From positions 1 to 38,215 of IMG/VR virus record IMGVR_UViG_2671180710_000023: a stretch of 38,215 nt of DNA; one strand, written 5' to 3'. This document shows, in pieces, positions 6,154 through 31,710 of the stretch; the first letter of the stretch is position 1, and each line of letters begins with the position of its first letter. Origin of the DNA: a virus (lineage: Duplodnaviria > Heunggongvirae > Uroviricota > Caudoviricetes). Position numbers and translations under genes: made by a program. The notes under the pieces were generated by a model that saw only the letters and a list, made by a program, of their open reading frames with translations, was not told the origin of the DNA and did no database searches.

Positions 6154-7304
6154 TTTTTCTTCTCCTTAATCACCGTCGATGTACTGCCATCCGGGTGATA
6201 AACCGTGAGTTTCTGAGTTTTTTGTTTTTTCCCTCTTGTGACTGGCCCCCGTGCCACTTCCAGCTCTGTGGTGTAGCCGCTGTTACGCTCAAACGCATGG
6301 CGGGCAGTGATTATCAGCCATGGACCGGATAACTGTCCAAAGCCCACCAGTTCAATTTTGTTGCCTGCTGTCAGTTGAGGCGTTCCCGTCAGCGTCAGGG
6401 AGCCGTTCTGCTGGTATTCGTTATGTCTGGCCAGTGCTGAATCCGCTTTAATCCGGGCACTGTCCGGGTCGCTGACGCGGCTGTTAACTTTAAGTGAGTC
6501 AGCGCTGGTAACCTTACCACCTTTGAGCTTTTTGTCGCTTTCACGGGTACCACCATCAGCTTCGTAGACGATCAGTTTTTTACTGCTGCTTTTCTGGTGT
6601 TTTACCTTTGCAGATTTATAGACCCGGTTGATGGTGTCACGCAGGGAAAAGCGGGCCACATCCTGCGGTTTTAACTGCCTGACCGGCTCCTGACTGCGCA
6701 GTGTGGCCAGATGAGAAAAAATCAGCTGGTCACTGACCACTTTCACTGCATAACCATACTCGCTGGCCAGCCGGCGCAGAAAACCCACGTCGGTTTCAGC
6801 ATACTGGGTCACCCGGTCGATTCTGATGGACTCAATGCTGCCCACCAGTTTCAGCCGGTGCTTTCTGGCAATCCGCCCCGCAACAGCCGCCAGCGTGGTG
6901 TTCTCAAAACCACGGCTGGATTTAGTCCGCAGAGCACTGTTAACCGAGGTGGCCACCCCACGGATAGCGACAACGGACGCGGGCGAACTCACTTCGATCT
7001 CGTCTATTGAGAATGTACCGCAGGACAGCAGTTTCTCGCCCTGATAACCCATTTTCAGCGTCAGCGTGTCACCCTTGCCCGGATACCACTTATCCAGCCA
7101 GCGGCCATCGGTGTCGTCCAGCTCCACCTCAATGGTATCGGACTCATTTTTGATGTTATCGCTCCAGACCACACGGGTGACATAAGGCGCGATATCAGAG
7201 GTGATGTTTTTCTGCAGATACCACAGCGTGAACACCGGCGTCAGCACATCGCTGACGCCGGTTAACGCTGATGTGGCTTGCGCAGTACTGTTTATCTCAG
7301 CCAT
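6150..7304 (-). CDS. Tail protein D-like (P2 gpD / Mu P family)
   Basis: 384 aa, position between X-like and V-like genes; Lys-rich C-terminus. Confidence 0.6.
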   Translation of the reverse strand: MAEINSTAQATSALTGVSDVLTPVFTLWYLQKNITSDIAPYVTRVVWSDNIKNESDTIEVELDDTDGRWLDKWYPGKGDTLTLKMGYQGEKLLSCGTFSIDEIEVSSPASVVAIRGVATSVNSALRTKSSRGFENTTLAAVAGRIARKHRLKLVGSIESIRIDRVTQYAETDVGFLRRLASEYGYAVKVVSDQLIFSHLATLRSQEPVRQLKPQDVARFSLRDTINRVYKSAKVKHQKSSSKKLIVYEADGGTRESDKKLKGGKVTSADSLKVNSRVSDPDSARIKADSALARHNEYQQNGSLTLTGTPQLTAGNKIELVGFGQLSGPWLIITARHAFERNSGYTTELEVARGPVTRGKKQKTQKLTVYHPDGSTSTVIKEKKK

Positions 7305-25118: not shown

Positions 25119-25709
25119 CTAAAAAAAGAAGTGTATTATTGCCCAAACAGCTATAACGATGATTCCCAGCCCAAGAGCCGATTCTAACTTATCTTTGGCA
25201 GTCATTTTTACTGTTGTAGCGGGCGCAGGTAAGTCTTGCTGCTGTGGATTTTCTGTTAGTTGTTTACGAGAAGAAACATCGCCCCTGTTAGTTTGCTTCA
25301 TGTTGATTACAGATGCGTTATGGGCATTATCAGCAGCAATTGACTGAAGTTTTACAAAAGTTTTTGAATCTGTTTTAGCCAGAAGTAACCTATTTCCCGT
25401 AAACATTGCCTTAAAAGTGATAGTTTTTTTCGTCTTGTCCGCCGCACCAAGCAAACCTCCAATGACCAACCCTGCACCACCAAAGATTAATCCACCAAGC
25501 AAACCTGCGCCTGCCGCCTTACCTATACGGCTTTCCTCTTCACTATCCGCAAGTTCAATCGATAAAAGCTCTTCTTTCAGATTTAATACAATATTTTCAG
25601 GAAAGCCTTGTTTTGGTTTTTTGGCAAACACGATGGTACCGAACCCCATGCTTGCCCACCCTTTAGGAAAACTTCCTGCGATAACCTGAATCCCTGCCAT
25701 GTTCATCAC
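25119..25709 (-). CDS. Glycine-zipper membrane protein (repressor operon, distal gene)
   Basis: AAGGTGA RBS; GKAAGAGLLGGLIFGGAGLVIGGLLGAA glycine-zipper hydrophobic segment plus C-terminal TM (LGLGIIVIAVWAIIHFFF). Confidence 0.55.
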   Translation of the reverse strand: MMNMAGIQVIAGSFPKGWASMGFGTIVFAKKPKQGFPENIVLNLKEELLSIELADSEEESRIGKAAGAGLLGGLIFGGAGLVIGGLLGAADKTKKTITFKAMFTGNRLLLAKTDSKTFVKLQSIAADNAHNASVINMKQTNRGDVSSRKQLTENPQQQDLPAPATTVKMTAKDKLESALGLGIIVIAVWAIIHFFF

Positions 25710-25790
25710 CTTTTACATTAAAATTTCAGAACGCAGCATGATGCCGCCTTTGTCTTTTTTCTGATCCCATGGTAATTCAGCTGTTATTTT

Positions 25791-26777
25791 CTATTTAAGA
25801 ATAAAACGGTACTTACTGTCAGGAGTGCTTTGCTGATCAAGTAGCAGTGAACGACATGGAGCAGTCAAAACCCGAGCATAACTACCATCAGGGCTTATGT
25901 TAATGTAACAAACCTTGCCCTTAACACTATAATTTTCGGGGACGGATGCCTTTGCTGATACAGTAAATTTAAGGGTATGCCAGCCCGTTTTTTGCTTGTA
26001 GCTTGAAACCGAATGGAAATCATCTGAGTACTTATTTAACCCTGGAAACATGCTGCGCAGTGCGGGGATGGAATCTTCTATTATTTTATCGTTGGTTTTA
26101 ATGTTAAAAACGCTGGTTTCAGTAGAAGCTACTGCTTTGGCATTTCCCCATTTACCAGCGAACACAATCATTCCCACGAAAAATATTGCTACAAGAACTA
26201 ACACTCCCCCCAACACTACTACATGAGGCTTCCGGCTTCTGGTTGGTACAGTTGCGACTGATTTTGCACCGCTTTCCGATGGAGGTGATAGAGTTTTACT
26301 CTCATCACGAATATTCAGCAGATCATCAAAATAACCAAACACAGCCTGCAACTGCTCTTTGTCTAGGCCTTTAAGATGGGTTGTACCGAAATGCTTCAGA
26401 CAGTATCTGTCACGGTCAAGACGATACCCAGGGTCAGTAAGCGCCATTATTTTGCTGACCAGAAGATTACAGTCCTTCATATTCTGGATCTGTTGTGCAT
26501 ATCTCTGAAGGATCTCAACCGCACCATGATAATCAGCCGCAGTCATTTCATTAACTGTTTTGGTATTAAGTTTCGTGTGGATCGTCATCCATAGCTCGCG
26601 CTTACTTTCCCCCAGATCAACCAATTCATCCATCAATCTGTGTAAATCGCGTTTTTGCAGCAACGAAATTGGTTGCTGGGCCGAAGGAAGTATGTCAGCA
26701 GAATAGTTATGAATGGTAACATCACCGCTGACAACGTTACCCACATCCCCGTTAACTGTTTGCTTCTCTTTACTCAT
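25791..26777 (-). CDS. Single-pass membrane protein (repressor operon, translationally coupled to repressor)
   Basis: ATGA overlap with repressor stop; ~180-aa cytoplasmic N-domain, TM helix (VVVLGGVLVLVAIFFVGMIVFAG), ~120-aa C-domain; AT-rich codon usage unlike structural genes. Confidence 0.55.
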   Translation of the reverse strand: MSKEKQTVNGDVGNVVSGDVTIHNYSADILPSAQQPISLLQKRDLHRLMDELVDLGESKRELWMTIHTKLNTKTVNEMTAADYHGAVEILQRYAQQIQNMKDCNLLVSKIMALTDPGYRLDRDRYCLKHFGTTHLKGLDKEQLQAVFGYFDDLLNIRDESKTLSPPSESGAKSVATVPTRSRKPHVVVLGGVLVLVAIFFVGMIVFAGKWGNAKAVASTETSVFNIKTNDKIIEDSIPALRSMFPGLNKYSDDFHSVSSYKQKTGWHTLKFTVSAKASVPENYSVKGKVCYINISPDGSYARVLTAPCRSLLLDQQSTPDSKYRFILK

Positions 26778-27235
26778 CTTCTCTTGGTATTTTTGTTCAC
26801 TATTCCACCTGTTCCTATGGTTACGTTACCTTTGATAACATTCCCCAGAACATCTCCATGAATAACCTGTTCCGCCCGTTCTCTGGAGGAGCCAGTAGTC
26901 AAGGCCGACAAAACTGAACCTTTGACCTGTAATGGTGCCTGCCGGTAGTGCTGCAGTAACTCCATTTCATCACGTGATAAAGTTATACCTGATGACTCCC
27001 CGGTAAGAATGAACTGTACATTGGCCCCAATTCTTGCAAAGGCTGCAAGTAACTCACCTCCGGGAACAGCAACCCCTCGTTCATATTTCCCCCACATTTC
27101 TCTTGAAACGCCACAAAGGGCTGCTACTTCAGCCTGCTTGAGTGATAACCGCGAACGCTCAGCTTTGAACCGCGACGCGCAAAGAGAATCAAAATTCACA
27201 TAAACCTCATTGACAATGAGAACTATAGTTCTCAT
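26774..27235 (-). CDS. XRE-family HTH repressor (c-repressor analogue)
   Basis: HTH_3-like LSLKQAEVAALCGVSREMWGKYERGVAVPGGELLAAFARIGANVQFIL; divergent from Ner-like gene across operator-bearing promoter; true start may be GTG near 27199. Confidence 0.7.
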   Translation of the reverse strand: MRTIVLIVNEVYVNFDSLCASRFKAERSRLSLKQAEVAALCGVSREMWGKYERGVAVPGGELLAAFARIGANVQFILTGESSGITLSRDEMELLQHYRQAPLQVKGSVLSALTTGSSRERAEQVIHGDVLGNVIKGNVTIGTGGIVNKNTKRR

Positions 27236-27238
27236 AAT
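27210..27238 (+). promoter_or_regulatory. Early promoter (TTGACA-17-CATAAT) with embedded perfect palindromic operator TGAGAACTATAGTTCTCA (27217-27234)
   Basis: Consensus -35, 17-bp spacer, near-consensus -10 about 45 bp upstream of ner-like ATG; 7-4-7 perfect inverted repeat spans spacer and -10. Confidence 0.6.
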
Positions 27239-27285
27239 CTATCACATATAAAACAAACATCATTGCATCAACAAAGGAGACAACA

Positions 27286-27474
27286 ATGACTTCCGAACAA
27301 GTTAAAAATCTCTTCCGTCAGCGTGGTATCACGTTTACCCGCTGGGCCGAAGAACACGGCTACAGCCGCAATGAGGTCTATCGTGTTCTCAATGGACAGA
27401 CCAAAGCTCGTTACGGCAAAGCCCATGAAATTGCTGTAAAACTGGGATTAAAACCCACGTCAAATGCGGCATAA
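27286..27474 (+). CDS. Ner-like small DNA-binding protein (Cro analogue)
   Basis: 62 aa; AAAGGAGA RBS; pattern ITFTRWAEEHGYSRNEVYRVL...GKAHEIAVKLGLKP resembles Mu Ner/Nlp HTH; first gene of early operon. Confidence 0.6.
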   Translation: MTSEQVKNLFRQRGITFTRWAEEHGYSRNEVYRVLNGQTKARYGKAHEIAVKLGLKPTSNAA

Positions 27475-27835
27475 ATTTTCCACATATGCAACAGGTTATC
27501 ACATATTGCAAAAATGGAAATGTGACATGAGTAAAGTAAATATTTCCAGTTCTGGGACCCGCATCCTACGTGTACTCAAAGCTCTACGCGGTCATGCTCT
27601 GAACGGTGTTTCTAACGGTGAACTGGCATCAGCCCTGGGGGAGTCCCCGGCGAATATCAATCGAGCACTTAATACCCTTATTGAAGAGGGACTGGCCATG
27701 AAATTAGAGAACGGACGTTTCGCACCGGGAATCCAGTTACTACAGATCGCCATGGCTCACAGTCACGAGATGGCGCGTGCACAGGATCGTATTAACGAAA
27801 TCAACCAACGAGTTATTTCAGGTAGTCGTTTGTAA
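27464..27835 (+). CDS. Winged-HTH protein (IclR-N-terminal-like DNA-binding domain)
   Basis: GTRILRVLKALRGHALNGVSNGELASALGESPANINRALNTLIEEGLAM fits wHTH; start may be ATG 27464 (overlapping ner stop) or 27527. Confidence 0.5.
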   Translation: MRHKFSTYATGYHILQKWKCDMSKVNISSSGTRILRVLKALRGHALNGVSNGELASALGESPANINRALNTLIEEGLAMKLENGRFAPGIQLLQIAMAHSHEMARAQDRINEINQRVISGSRL

Positions 27836-27845
27836 GGAGTAATCA

Positions 27846-28760
27846 ATGGGACGCACCAAATCACCCGTTAACACTGAACTGAATGTTGAGGTTCCGCTGT
27901 CAGATAACATCAATGTCAATTTGAACGCTATGACACAGCATCGCATGGAAATTATGCAGCAGTTTGGTGATGGACTGCCTTATGAACGTGATCGCATTGT
28001 TCACGAAGCACGTTTTTATATGGCGCAGAGTGCTGAATCTATGCTGGAAGCGGGTAAGCGGCTGATCATCTTAAAAGAAAATGAGCCACACGGTGATTTT
28101 ACAAACATTTTAGAAAATGAACTCGGACTTGCACCACAAGTTGCTCGCCGCATGATGCAAGCCAGTATGAAGTTTTTGGGAGAAGGTGATGAGCCAACAA
28201 AACGCTCAACGTTGAGCGTTTTGGGGAAAGCCAAACTGTACGACCTGATGGTTCTGGATAATGAAGAACTTGATGAATTGGCCGACGGCGGCACAGTTGC
28301 CGGCCTGACGCTTGACGACGTTGATCGCATGTCAGTACGTGAATTGCGTCAGGCCCTGCGCGAAGCGCGCGAAACCAACACAGCACAACAGCGCGTACTC
28401 GCCGACAAAAATGAAAAAATAGACTCACTCTCCACCAGACTGGAGAAGAAATCCCGTATTCAGCCACCTGAGCCTGATGAAGAGGTGAAGAAACTGCGGG
28501 CGGAAGTGACCGCGTTAGCGGTTGAGGCGGAATCTGCCATCGCCGTTCGACTGTCCAGCGCTTTTGAGACACTGTGCGCATATTGTGCTGAAAACATGAT
28601 TGATACCCCCAGAGACTTCATGGCAGGCCTGGTCTGTCAACTGGAAAGCACAGCGCGTAGCCTGCGCTCCACATTTGACCTGCCGGACGAGCCAACAGGC
28701 GATGTCGCGCCTTCATGGCTGACTGAGCCGACGCCACAGATTAACGGGCTGGAGGCATAA
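27846..28760 (+). CDS. Hypothetical early protein (304 aa) between ner and transposase
   Basis: Strong RBS (AAGGAG); acidic, coiled-coil-rich; no catalytic motif recognised. Confidence 0.5.
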   Translation: MGRTKSPVNTELNVEVPLSDNINVNLNAMTQHRMEIMQQFGDGLPYERDRIVHEARFYMAQSAESMLEAGKRLIILKENEPHGDFTNILENELGLAPQVARRMMQASMKFLGEGDEPTKRSTLSVLGKAKLYDLMVLDNEELDELADGGTVAGLTLDDVDRMSVRELRQALREARETNTAQQRVLADKNEKIDSLSTRLEKKSRIQPPEPDEEVKKLRAEVTALAVEAESAIAVRLSSAFETLCAYCAENMIDTPRDFMAGLVCQLESTARSLRSTFDLPDEPTGDVAPSWLTEPTPQINGLEA

Positions 28761-28763
28761 CCA

Positions 28764-30533
28764 ATGAATGCTGCCCTGACTGAACGACTGGTTTATGTCG
28801 CCCGCGCGGCACGTGACGCGGGGCATGGTAAACGCGGTGCAATATACGACGCTGCCTGTGCTGAACTTGGCATGTCCCGCGCCACTCTGCTGCGCAGGCT
28901 GAAGGAGGTATCTGTGACTGATAAACGCAAAAAACGCGCCGATGCCGGGCGCAGCGCCCTGACCCGCGACGAAGCCGCGCTGATATCTGCCACACTACGT
29001 GAGGCCACCCGCAAGAACGGTAAGCGTCTCTATTCCATCGCGGATGCAGTGGAAACCCTGCGGGCTAACGGCTTTATCTCCGCAGGCAGAACAGATGAAA
29101 CCACCGGTGAGTTTTTCCCGTTGTCCGAAGATGCCATCAGTCGTGCCCTGCGTAACTATGGCCTGCACCCGGAACAACTGGATGCCCCTGCGCCGCATAC
29201 CGAAGTGGCCAGTCTGCATCCCAATCATGTCTGGCAGATTGACGCCTCACTCTGCACGCTTTACTACCTGAGCAATGGACATAAAGGGCTGCAGGTGATG
29301 GACAGCGCGAAGTTCTACAAGAACAAGCCCGCTAACCTTGCCCGTATCGCCAGTGACCGCGTGTGGAGTTACGAGATTACCGACCATGCCAGCGGCTGGA
29401 TTTACGTTGAGTATGTGACGGGCGCGGAATCAGGTGAGAACCTGTGTTCTGTGCTTATCAACGCCATGCAGGAGCGTGGCGGCGCAGACGTGCTGCACGG
29501 CGTGCCGAAAATACTCTATCTCGACCCCGGCTCGGCAAACACCGCGGGTATGACGAAAAACATGTGCCGCTCACTGGGCATCGACCTGATAGCGCACAAG
29601 CCGCATAACGCCCGCGCCACCGGACAGGTGGAAAAGGCGCGTGACATTATCGAACGCAAGCTGGAGCCGGGTCTGAAATTCCGGCCGGTTCACAGTCTGG
29701 AAGAACTCAACGCGCTGGCCGCGAAATGGCGCAGCCACTTTAACGCAACAGCTGTTCACAGCCGCCACGGTAAAACCCGCACGGATATCTGGCTGAAGAT
29801 TACTGCTGAGCAGCTGAAAAAAGCGCCTTCCGTTGAGGTATGCCGTGAACTGGCTGTGGCGACACCAGAACTCCGCAAAGTCACGCCAAAACTTCGTGTC
29901 TCGTTCCGGGGCACTGAATTTGACGTATCAACGGTACCGGGCGTACTGGTTGGTGAAAAACTGATGATTACCCGTAACCCGTGGCGCAGCGATGTGGCAC
30001 AGGTGGTTCTGACCGGTGAGGACGGCCACGAGACGTTCTTCCTGGTCGAAGAGGTCAGAAAGAACGAGTTTGGCTTTGCTGAAGGCGCGGCGGTATTTGG
30101 CGAAAGTTACAAAGCCCTGCCGGAAACACCGGCACAGACGGCGGCAAAAGAAACCGAAGCGCTGGTCACCGGTACAGACAACGCCGCAGATGCAGCTGCC
30201 GCACGCAAGGCGAAGGCGCTGCCGTTCGGCGGGCGGCTTGACCCGTATAAACATATTGATGACGCCACACTTCCGGCCTGTATACCGAAGCGCGGTCAGG
30301 TCTCTGATGTACGCAGACCGCGCACTGAACAACGTCCCATGACTCATGTGGAGGCCGCGAAAGCCCTGCGCGATAAGTTCAGCGCCGACGGCCTTACCTG
30401 GACGCCGGAACATTACCGCCAGTTAACGGCACAGTACCCGGACGGCGTACCGGAAGCCGCACTGGATGAAGTAGTGGCCACGCTGACCACGCCGGCCCGC
30501 AGCAGCGTTATCAGCATTGTTAACGGCAACTGA
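28764..30533 (+). CDS. DDE transposase (Mu A-like, rve/integrase-core family)
   Basis: 589 aa; HVWQIDAS and LYLDPGSANT blocks consistent with DDE catalytic core; followed by overlapping AAA+ B gene. Confidence 0.8.
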   Translation: MNAALTERLVYVARAARDAGHGKRGAIYDAACAELGMSRATLLRRLKEVSVTDKRKKRADAGRSALTRDEAALISATLREATRKNGKRLYSIADAVETLRANGFISAGRTDETTGEFFPLSEDAISRALRNYGLHPEQLDAPAPHTEVASLHPNHVWQIDASLCTLYYLSNGHKGLQVMDSAKFYKNKPANLARIASDRVWSYEITDHASGWIYVEYVTGAESGENLCSVLINAMQERGGADVLHGVPKILYLDPGSANTAGMTKNMCRSLGIDLIAHKPHNARATGQVEKARDIIERKLEPGLKFRPVHSLEELNALAAKWRSHFNATAVHSRHGKTRTDIWLKITAEQLKKAPSVEVCRELAVATPELRKVTPKLRVSFRGTEFDVSTVPGVLVGEKLMITRNPWRSDVAQVVLTGEDGHETFFLVEEVRKNEFGFAEGAAVFGESYKALPETPAQTAAKETEALVTGTDNAADAAAARKAKALPFGGRLDPYKHIDDATLPACIPKRGQVSDVRRPRTEQRPMTHVEAAKALRDKFSADGLTWTPEHYRQLTAQYPDGVPEAALDEVVATLTTPARSSVISIVNGN

Positions 30534-30543
30534 GGAGGGAAAC

Positions 30544-31710
30544 ATGCTGGTACTGAAGCAGCAACTGAAAGAGGCCCGTATTCCACAGGCGGTGGTGGCG
30601 AGAGCTGTCGATGTTTCTGAGGCCACGCTGGCCCAGATTGTGAATCATAACGCGTGGCCCCGCACCAGCCCCGGAGAAGTGCGCCGGCGTCTTGCGTCCT
30701 GGCTGGAAAGTCAGGGAATTGATACAGCGAAGAGTTTTGATGCTGTACAGGGCGCGGCCACGCCCCGTACAGCGGGTACCACAGATAAAACGAGCCTCAG
30801 TGAGGAAGAGAATATGTTACTCAAAAAACAGGTGTTATTTCCAGCAACCAAAAAAGCGTTTGGTCTTTTTCGTGACCCGTTCGCCGACGAAGCCATGCAG
30901 GGTTCTGATGATGTGTTCACCACACCAGACATTCGCTACGTGCGTGAGGCGTTGTACCAGACAGCCCGTCATGGTGGGTTTATGGCCGTCATCGGTGAGT
31001 CCGGTGCGGGTAAATCCACGCTGCGCCGCGACCTGACTGAACGTATTAACCGCGAGAATGCGCCAGTAATTGTTATTGAGCCATACATCATCGCTATGGA
31101 AGATAACGATGTGAAAGGGAAAACCCTGAAGGCAGCAGCTATTGCCGAAGCCATTATCAGTACCATCGCACCACTGGAAAGCATCAGACGCAGTCAGGAC
31201 GCCCGCTTTCGCCAGTTGCATCGCGTCCTGAAAGACAGCAGCCAGGCGGGGTTCAGCCACGTTCTGGTGATTGAGGAGGCCCACAGTCTGCCCATTCCGA
31301 CACTGAAACACCTCAAACGCTTTTTTGAGCTGGAGTCCGGTTTCAAAAAACTGCTGTCCATCGTGCTGATTGGCCAGCCGGAACTGGCGACAAAACTGTC
31401 TGAACGCAATATGGAAGTCCGTGAAGTCGTTCAGCGCTGTGAGGTGGTCGAACTTCTGCCTCTGGACAATAACCTTGAAGAATTTCTGACGTTCAAACTG
31501 CAACGGGCCGGTAAACAGCTGACGGACATTATGGACGCCAGCGCAGTGGATGCCATACGTGCCCGCCTGAGCAATCCGGGAAGTCACCGTAAAAATATGG
31601 TCAGCCTGCTGTATCCGCTGGCCGTCAGTAACCTGGTAATAGCCGCCATGAATCTGGCAGCTGAAATCGGGGTTCCACAGGTCAACGCTGACGTTGTCAA
31701 AGGGGTTTAA
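30544..31710 (+). CDS. Transposition ATPase (Mu B / TniB-like AAA+)
   Basis: ATG 30544 preceded by GAGGAGGG; Walker A GESGAGKST, Walker B VLVIEEAH; immediately after transposase. Confidence 0.8.
   Translation: MLVLKQQLKEARIPQAVVARAVDVSEATLAQIVNHNAWPRTSPGEVRRRLASWLESQGIDTAKSFDAVQGAATPRTAGTTDKTSLSEEENMLLKKQVLFPATKKAFGLFRDPFADEAMQGSDDVFTTPDIRYVREALYQTARHGGFMAVIGESGAGKSTLRRDLTERINRENAPVIVIEPYIIAMEDNDVKGKTLKAAAIAEAIISTIAPLESIRRSQDARFRQLHRVLKDSSQAGFSHVLVIEEAHSLPIPTLKHLKRFFELESGFKKLLSIVLIGQPELATKLSERNMEVREVVQRCEVVELLPLDNNLEEFLTFKLQRAGKQLTDIMDASAVDAIRARLSNPGSHRKNMVSLLYPLAVSNLVIAAMNLAAEIGVPQVNADVVKGV

Follow-up and report, generated by a model that had tools for sequence, protein, structure and literature searches.

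A putative repressor-operator pair of the P22/434 class in the early promoter of a BcepMu-like prophage of Escherichia coli

Introduction

Phage repressors of the P22 c2/434 cI class have an N-terminal five-helix helix-turn-helix (HTH) DNA-binding domain and act on dyad operators of 14 to 18 bp with conserved outer half-sites and a variable centre. Their operators overlap the core of the lytic promoter, occur as adjacent multiple sites, and have a specificity set by the cognate repressor, which is the basis of heteroimmunity. P22 operators are arranged as 7-4-7, two half-sites of 7 bp around a centre of 4 bp. The peptidase S24 domain, involved in RecA-stimulated self-cleavage of the lambda, P22 and 434 repressors, defines their induction mechanism and not their mode of DNA binding. 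The Mu repressor carries a Mu-specific winged-helix domain related to the N-terminus of MuA and recognizes many short repeats in three operators extending over about 200 bp, with an IHF site. Here, we analysed a stretch of 38,215 nucleotides (IMG/VR virus record IMGVR_UViG_2671180710_000023, positions 1 to 38,215), hereafter the window, and describe the immunity region, that is the on/off switch between lysis and lysogeny, of the BcepMu-like transposable prophage that it contains.

In transposable phages, overlapping divergent promoters have been described as the prevalent configuration in a study of Pseudomonas phages (PMC9936078). For B3-like phages such as Fc02, prediction and RNA-seq coverage are reported to give a pC2 promoter that overlaps pE and a further, distal promoter, pC1, on the far side of ner (PMC9936078). 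The passages retrieved give no operator sequence, and the word "operator" occurs once in the paper. For BcepMu, gp17 is assigned as the repressor and gp16 as an HTH DNA-binding protein (PMC2628397). The Fc02 promoter description and the gp17/gp16 assignments were all that the searchable literature offered, and no experimental operator study on BcepMu or on transposable phages was found in it.

We assigned the window to the BcepMu-like phages because the closest isolated phage, PhiKM, is classed as a Bcepmuvirus and because of the early gene set annotated in RefSeq; synteny of the early region and homology to BcepMu gp17/gp16 and relatives agree with this assignment. PhiKM is 82% identical to the window to the right of the -10 hexamer described below. 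The region is 99% identical to a prophage found in E. coli IAI39, in CE10, and in some 125 further complete genomes. Of the 5426 complete E. coli genomes, 634, many of them from human isolates, have parts of the early region, while the repressor type of the window occurs in only about 125. The early region is thus widespread in E. coli, yet its switch is uncharacterised in the literature searchable here.

Results

A palindrome fills the spacer of a strong early promoter

Positions 26400-27900 were read directly for the sequence features stated here. The early promoter, Pe, lies on the plus strand and consists of a -35 hexamer TTGACA (27210-27215), a spacer of 17 nt (27216-27232), and a -10 hexamer CATAAT (27233-27238). 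The -35 hexamer was found by direct reading and by a promoter scan, and a similar hexamer stands at the same place in more than 40 related loci and in BcepMu. In the 38-kb window, Pe is the sole site with at least 11 of 12 promoter matches, for which shuffled sequences predict 0.26 sites, and the consensus scan detected no other promoter-like site within 26600-28000. Pe also comes first in a position-weight scan (score 14.3), in which two sites of the window reach 12 or more.

The spacer is occupied by a perfect palindrome of 20 bp, ATGAGAAC-TATA-GTTCTCAT, at 27216-27235, which belongs to neither strand and which we call O1, the putative primary operator. In its full form, ATGAGAACTATAGTTCTCAT, O1 fills the whole Pe spacer and extends 3 nt into the -10 hexamer, so that it overlaps the core of the lytic promoter as operators of the P22 c2/434 cI class do. 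Its core is the 18-mer TGAGAAC-TATA-GTTCTCA (27217-27234). Both the near-consensus promoter TTGACA-17-CATAAT and this inverted repeat across the spacer and the -10 hexamer had been noticed in the original prediction, and both are present as described, the repeat being in fact longer than the 18 bp first seen. Even at a tolerance of 3 mismatches, the 18-mer has no second copy in the window. Of the dinucleotide-shuffled windows, 22% contain some palindrome whose arms are at least 10 bp long, and the case for O1 therefore rests on its position and on conservation and comparison. What is conserved is the pair of 7-8-bp arms, (A)TGAGAAC and GTTCTCA(T), which flank a variable centre of 4 bp: with the same arms, TATA, AATA, TAAA, TAGA, TTTG, CAAA, and TTAA are found as centres in this and related loci. 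O1 is thus a dyad of the form TGAGAAC-N4-GTTCTCA, with conserved outer half-sites and a variable centre.

The T at 27224 is the base that makes the palindrome perfect, and it was not found in the 125 complete E. coli genomes of this immunity type, none of which is identical to the window over 27190-27259. The perfect TATA centre is thus a private variant of the window, and the two other copies read, IAI39 and FDAARGOS_1252, have AATA. The same T creates a -10-like hexamer, TATAGT, on both strands of the palindrome centre. We rejected TATAGT as a -10 element because the centres vary and it is not conserved. Further TGAGAAC half-sites, for which a search had been proposed, proved not to be enriched in the window (7 versus 4.2 expected), the other copies being scattered in coding DNA. 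Two O1-like stretches were considered and set aside. The first, TGAGAACCTGTGTTCTGT at 29435-29452 in the transposase gene, has 2 mismatches in 14 positions, but it is base-for-base identical in the heteroimmune PhiKM and encodes GENLCSV; we take it as a coding coincidence. The second, at 27369-27393 in the ner-like gene (72% identical to O1), has its arms 6 nt apart rather than 4 and encodes a conserved RNEVYRVLNG also present in PhiKM.

The palindrome travels with the repressor gene and follows its recognition helix

In PhiKM and about 470 E. coli genomes, similarity to the window starts at 27233/4, inside the -10 hexamer, and a different repressor gene lies to the left. We fetched four such heteroimmune types, PhiKM, VTB96929v, CD306/S21EC, and AR0349, which together with the window make five E. 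coli types. Each of the four has a -35-like hexamer, a spacer of 16-17 nt, and a -10 hexamer (C/A/T)ATAAT, with its own spacer sequence. PhiKM combines TTGATA, the spacer TGCTCATAATTATGAGC, and AATAAT, with a perfect palindrome of 16 bp as its dyad. VTB96929v combines TTTACA, TATCCCATTTTTGGGAT, and AATAAT, with the dyad ATCCCA-TTTT-TGGGAT. The dyads are imperfect in CD306/S21EC (TTGACT, GGTGAGGTAATCTGCAC, CATAAT) and in AR0349 (TTGCTT, TATACACATTTGTGCA, TATAAT). Since distinct spacer dyads lie to the left of a shared junction, the palindrome travels with the repressor gene and not with the operon that it would control. Computationally, operator specificity thus appears to be set by the cognate repressor, as expected of heteroimmune phages.

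A search with the repressor gave 107 homologues, and 80 loci came from a scan in which each species was represented by one genome. The layout is kept in more than 40 loci, which belong to many genera of Gamma- and Betaproteobacteria: a hexamer resembling TTGACA is followed, after about 17 nt, by (C)ATAAT, and the spacer holds a dyad. These genera include Serratia, Pectobacterium, Brenneria, Lonsdalea, Enterobacter, Izhakiella, Kosakonia, and Gilliamella, as well as Pseudomonas, Azonexus, Herbaspirillum, Collimonas, Thiothrix, Acidovorax, Pandoraea, and others, and many of the loci keep the same downstream order of genes for a ner-like protein, a winged HTH (wHTH) protein, DUF3102, and a transposase. 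At least 15 different dyad sequences occupy this position over the more than 40 loci, always matched to the neighbouring repressor. Their arms change symmetrically, as in TGCGAAC..GTTCGCA of Izhakiella, GAGATC-TATA-GATCTC of Enterobacter soli, or TGTGATC-TATA-GATCACA of Pectobacterium colocasium.

Half-sites and recognition helices, the latter being the third helix of the repressor HTH, co-vary in sequence. Repressors with the helix SRE[MI]WG[KR]YE, such as that of the window, go with the half-site GAGAAC, SRETWGKYE with GAGATC, [KQ]RETWSRYE with GTGAT[CT], KK[LQ]AQL.YE with GGTA.TC, and TKKSQIDYE with GGTAAC. The pattern is combinatorial: S versus K/Q at the first helix residue pairs with A versus T at base 3 of the half-site, and M/I versus T at the fourth residue pairs with A versus T at base 6. 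This is what direct readout of the dyad by the neighbouring protein predicts. Altogether, the immunity swaps, the conservation of the layout, and the co-variation of half-site and recognition helix support the proposal that the palindrome is a repressor operator occluding the promoter of the ner-like/transposase operon.

We considered whether the palindrome could instead be a site for the Ner-like (Cro-like) protein, which would bind it either exclusively or, as at lambda OR, in common with the repressor. Cro and CI do share operators in lambda, P22, and 434, and the ner-like gene is the first one downstream of Pe. However, the Ner-like proteins of PhiKM and S21EC are identical (63/63) despite unrelated palindromes, and those of AR0349 and VTB96929v match in 62 of 63 positions while their palindromes differ. 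The same protein with unrelated palindromes argues strongly that it is not the reader of the palindrome, which moreover follows the recognition helix of the repressor. We therefore hold this alternative to be very unlikely.

The repressor gene starts within the annotated reading frame

The longest open reading frame (ORF) of the repressor lies on the minus strand at 26774-27235 and encodes 153 amino acids. Its ATG is the complement of the CAT at 27233-27235, that is, the reverse complement of the -10 region, as had been pointed out. PGAP calls this ATG in IAI39, and the annotated protein of 153 amino acids is WP_001259268.1. The original prediction had left two possibilities, a leaderless or nearly leaderless mRNA starting at the ATG, or translation from a GTG near 27199. 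Our comparison bears out the second. The GTG (27199-27197, minus strand) lies 12 codons into the long ORF and is preceded at a distance of 5 nt by a Shine-Dalgarno (SD) sequence, GAGG, at 27205-27208 on the minus strand, immediately next to the -35 hexamer of Pe. Nearly all homologues start with MNFDSLCA..., which aligns to codon 13 of the long ORF, i.e., the GTG. Among relatives, ATG and GTG alternate at this position behind a purine-rich GAGG, GGGG, or GGTG about 5 nt upstream.

The annotated start has in its favour that PGAP picks it and that a few database homologues share the MRT..LIVN extension. Against it, the ATG within the palindrome is directly followed by TGA in Pectobacterium, Brenneria, and Lonsdalea (loci L009, L010, and L012), and the upstream frame is also closed in Serratia sp. 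L9, P. colocasium, and E. soli (L017, L020, and L011). The ATG at 27235 has neither an SD sequence before it nor a -10 hexamer spaced suitably for leaderless initiation. The 12-codon extension, MRTIVLIVNEVY (27200-27235, minus strand), is O1, the -35 hexamer, and the SD sequence read on the other strand, open only where this DNA happens to lack a stop, and we judged it non-coding. A protein of 153 amino acids made from a leaderless or near-leaderless mRNA is thus very unlikely. The homologue starts, the alternation of ATG and GTG behind an SD sequence, and the closed upstream frames point to a repressor gene at 26774-27199 on the minus strand, whose predicted product has 141 amino acids; the ATG at 27235 would be a by-product of the operator and the -10 hexamer.

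Start calls differ elsewhere in the family too. CD306 and S21EC are identical in their upstream DNA where read, and their RefSeq starts differ (L003 1115-1573 versus L004 1115-1453), as one of the two genes is annotated 120 nt longer, so that it crosses the operator region and reaches the start codon of ner. RefSeq start calls in this repressor family are unreliable, because the operator and promoter DNA often contains no stop codons.

The repressor has an XRE (Cro/C1-type) HTH, matching HTH_31 (30.7 bits for a cut-off of 27) and HTH_3 in Pfam. By sequence, the nearest solved structures are the N-terminal domain of P22 C2 (E 9e-5) and the 434 repressor (E 0.02). An AlphaFold model, used for the domain layout, has helices at 3-17, 22-29, 33-41, 48-56, and 61-66 with pLDDT (predicted local distance difference test) values above 90, in keeping with the five-helix DNA-binding domain of the P22 c2/434 cI class; the third helix is 33-41. 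This domain is followed by a helical hairpin (76-102) and a disordered C-terminal tail. The peptidase S24 domain (PF00717) had no Pfam match in the repressor, and only a few remote homologues carry it. Since the modelled C-terminus is a helical hairpin and a disordered tail instead of an S24/LexA-type domain, RecA-driven self-cleavage is unlikely. Homologues with 31-42% identity were also seen in many phages of Ralstonia (among them RSA1, RsoM1USA, and RSY1) and Burkholderia (among them AP3 and PhiBP82.2), which we take to be P2-like and not transposable, so the repressor family may extend beyond transposable phages.

A putative second, degenerate operator covers the repressor start codon

Only one full copy of the operator had been recognized originally. 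This is literally true, and incomplete, as a degenerate second site, O2 (AGAGAAT-CAAA-ATTCACA, 27183-27200, no strand), lies 34 bp to the left of O1, centre to centre, over the true start codon. O2 matches 10 of the 14 half-site positions, and the chance of an equally good match within 70 nt is about 0.016. It covers the GTG and the first six repressor codons, with the start codon in its right arm and Ser5-Leu6 encoded in its left arm. O1 and O2 together bracket the -35 hexamer of Pe and the repressor SD sequence.

A second, degenerate cognate site recurs among the relatives. When the best match to each locus's own O1 was sought 18-70 bp upstream, it fell at 30-35 bp in 40 of the 42 loci. At the O2 positions, the cognate O1 scores 11.8 of 18, and the O1 of unrelated operator types 8.5 ± 1.5 (Mann-Whitney p about 1e-23, for loci that are not independent). 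Among GAGAAC-type lineages with Ser-Leu at codons 5-6, these residues are encoded by TCT-CTT in 9 of 10, even in GC-rich Pseudomonas, while the rest of each GAGAAC-type repressor gene uses mixed Ser and Leu codons. The sole exception, L028, is also the locus without a detectable O2. Because of its position, its cognate co-variation with O1, and these fixed codons, O2 appears to be constrained at the DNA level. Most likely, it supports cooperative binding, negative autoregulation, or both.

These data also bear on the possibility that the inverted repeat is no protein site and acts through its own base pairing, as a DNA cruciform or, if the repressor is transcribed from a distal promoter, as a hairpin in its mRNA. 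The compensatory arm changes of the relatives keep the pairing too, and a distal repressor promoter is described for the B3-like phage Fc02 (PMC9936078). Yet a structure does not account for arms that correlate with specific residues of the recognition helix, nor for an O2 that resembles O1 in sequence and makes a poor hairpin; in addition, the position of the dyad is fixed to the -35/-10 spacer in all lineages, and no Rfam family matches. A role as structure is thus highly improbable. That Pe is real and the palindrome a chance occurrence with no regulatory role, for which the frequency of such palindromes in shuffled windows and the private perfect centre could be cited, is barely credible given dyads at that exact position in more than 40 loci with their many repressor-matched sequences.

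The shared leader, the early operon, and the repressor promoter

By standard sigma-70 geometry (6-8 nt after the -10 hexamer), the putative transcription start of Pe lies at 27244-27246 on the plus strand, which would give the ner-like gene a leader of about 41 nt. The leader region common to heteroimmune phages (27236-27285, plus strand) contains an SD sequence, AAGGAG, at 27274-27279. Its identity between the five E. coli immunity types is about 91%, and partial conservation reaches to Pseudomonas. We observed in it a motif, AAACATC(A/T)TTGCATCA(A)C...GGAG, recognisable from E. coli to Pseudomonas and Cellvibrio-like loci (the corresponding leaders of L008-L054), that includes the direct repeat CATCA-TTG-CATCA and is a candidate site for the Ner-like protein. 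No credible Rfam match was obtained, and the leader is unstructured (z = -0.8). The region 27236-27285 is a candidate location for both the site of the Ner-like protein and the repressor promoter. A 10-mer, TATCACATAT, occurs just past the -10 hexamer of Pe (27240-27249) and again between the ner-like and wHTH genes (27497-27506), this second copy being kept in PhiKM, and a related sequence, CCACATATGCAACA, lies at 27480-27493. The repeated 10-mer could mark a second promoter or be bound by a common regulator.

The best, though weak, repressor-promoter candidate is TGaTAGATT at 27236-27244 on the minus strand, an extended -10 whose score of 8.8 is attained about once per kb. Transcription from it would begin near 27229, that is, downstream of the ATG at 27235, and it is conserved only among enterobacterial copies. 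Its assignment is speculative. By analogy with Fc02, for which one repressor promoter is described as overlapping pE and the other as lying beyond ner (PMC9936078), either a proximal or a distal arrangement is possible in the window.

The first gene of the Pe operon (27286-27474, plus strand) encodes the small Ner-like/Cro-like HTH protein of 62 amino acids (phrog_925), the positional counterpart of BcepMu gp16. It stays below the Pfam cut-off for every family and weakly matches HTH_31. On the same strand, ORFs, the RefSeq annotation of the IAI39 prophage, and Pfam together identify an IclR-type wHTH protein (27527-27835), DUF3102 (27846-28760), a DDE transposase (28764-30533), and a MuB-like ExeA ATPase (30544-31710). 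The RefSeq order is the same: an HTH protein read leftward from the long ATG and, in the rightward direction, a small DNA-binding protein, a second HTH protein, DUF3102, a transposase with an integrase catalytic domain, and an ExeA/MuB-like ATPase. No terminator-like site was detected within 26600-28000.

To the left, the repressor stop overlaps the start of an ORF of 328 amino acids (phrog_10002), followed by one of 196 amino acids (phrog_12025), both within 25119-26777 on the minus strand. The translation of the latter has hydrophobic, Gly-rich stretches suggestive of a membrane protein. Both ORFs accompany only the immunity type of the window; in the remaining E. coli types, their place is taken by a gene for a Dam methylase. 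They may be accessory or exclusion genes expressed in lysogeny.

Two other repeats were seen in the window. The longest palindrome, CAAAACGCTCAACGTTGAGCGTTTTG, is perfect over 26 bp and lies in the DUF3102 gene (28198-28223). Among the fetched loci it is exact only in IAI39, with no exact match in PhiKM and FDAARGOS_1252. An inverted repeat at 7234-7262, with arms of 12 bp and a gap of 5 nt (CACCGGCGTCAG-CACAT-CGCTGACGCCGGT-like), is not followed by a T-run.

Discussion

We propose, with a probability of roughly 0.82, that the switch of this prophage is a repressor-operator pair of the P22/434 style built into the strong sigma-70 promoter Pe. A dimer of the divergently encoded XRE-family repressor of 141 amino acids would bind O1. 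Since O1 fills the spacer and the first bases of the -10 hexamer, the bound repressor would exclude RNA polymerase and silence the operon for the ner-like, wHTH, DUF3102, transposase, and MuB-like genes. At the weaker O2, over the repressor start, pairwise cooperative binding could aid repression, or the repressor could limit its own transcription, or both. The Ner-like protein would use neither O1 nor O2 and would probably have its site beyond the -10 hexamer, in the leader that the immunity types share. We infer physical binding, cooperativity, autoregulation, both transcription starts, and the position of the repressor promoter from comparison of sequences.

Several points weigh against this proposal. 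The searchable literature yielded no data on binding, footprints, or transcripts, either for the phage of the window or for BcepMu-like phages. The comparison loci were retrieved through repressor homology and are hence phylogenetically related, and the O1 18-mers were chosen by eye from the spacers. Symmetric changes of the arms would equally keep an RNA hairpin. Since O2 overlaps codons of the repressor, its conservation is partly that of the protein. The spacing of O1 and O2 (30-35 bp) is not locked to the helical repeat, and cooperativity is therefore not a given. Finally, no convincing repressor promoter was detected, the consensus scan of the minus strand being empty and the position-weight scan giving weak candidates.

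More tentatively, the BcepMu-like phages as a whole may share a compact modular switch. It would combine a constant promoter scaffold (TTGACA, 17 nt, CATAAT), interchangeable operator cassettes, a recognition code linking two or three helix residues to half-site bases, an O2 in the first six codons of the repressor, and a Ner-like protein possibly active in trans across immunity types. We consider this generalization possible rather than probable. If it holds, one stretch of DNA both encodes the N-terminus of the repressor and forms its autoregulatory site, so that neither can evolve without the other, and the Ner-like protein, being common to heteroimmune phages, could act in trans across immunity types. 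For prophages of this kind, the analysis gives two defined putative operators, a rule predicting homo- or heteroimmunity, and a corrected gene start (141 rather than the annotated 153 amino acids). The family may also be a natural source of orthogonal repressor/operator pairs for engineering, all built on the same promoter scaffold.

The locus can be compared with four described systems. As in the B3/D3112-like Pseudomonas phages, of which Fc02 is an example, the repressor and early promoters would diverge and overlap within a short intergenic region that precedes a ner homologue; unlike in Fc02, the operator pair of the window is defined by co-variation. BcepMu is closer. Its gp17 is a homologue of the window repressor (38.5% identical), TTGACA, GGTAATCAAACGCATAC, and CATACT with an imperfect dyad lie between gp17 and gp16, and a related site 34 bp away covers the gp17 ATG. 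It differs in its half-site specificity, which is of the GGTA..C type, and in the imperfection of the dyad.

The gene order is that of Mu immunity, with the repressor on the left and, divergently on the right, genes for a ner-like protein, a transposase (A), and a B-like ATPase, the same synteny being found in relatives. In both, the early transposition operon would be silenced by the repressor, and the Ner site is probably separate from the repressor operators. Unlike Mu, the window has an XRE HTH repressor and one strong and one weak dyad within 53 bp. A Mu-type repressor domain with short repeats in three operators was not found in it, the repressor being XRE-type and half-sites not being enriched.

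The likeness to P22 c2 and 434 cI is in the switch itself. It comprises the nearest solved HTH structures, an operator over the lytic promoter, a second and weaker site, divergent repressor and lytic operon, an 18-bp dyad of 7-4-7 with conserved outer half-sites and a freely varying centre of 4 bp, and immunity modules swapped as cassettes. In contrast to P22 and 434, the repressor of the window lacks a C-terminal domain of the peptidase S24/LexA type. Instead of three operators at about 24 bp, there are two at a distance of about 33 bp, O2 lies inside the first repressor codons, the Ner-like Cro analogue would not share the operators, and the host of the switch is a transposable phage. As far as its sequence can tell, the system works as a P22/434-type switch in a Mu-type gene order, and not as a Mu-type operator region. 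The arrangement is a textbook one that changes no general principle, and it is a well-supported new case of the P22/434-type repressor-operator class.

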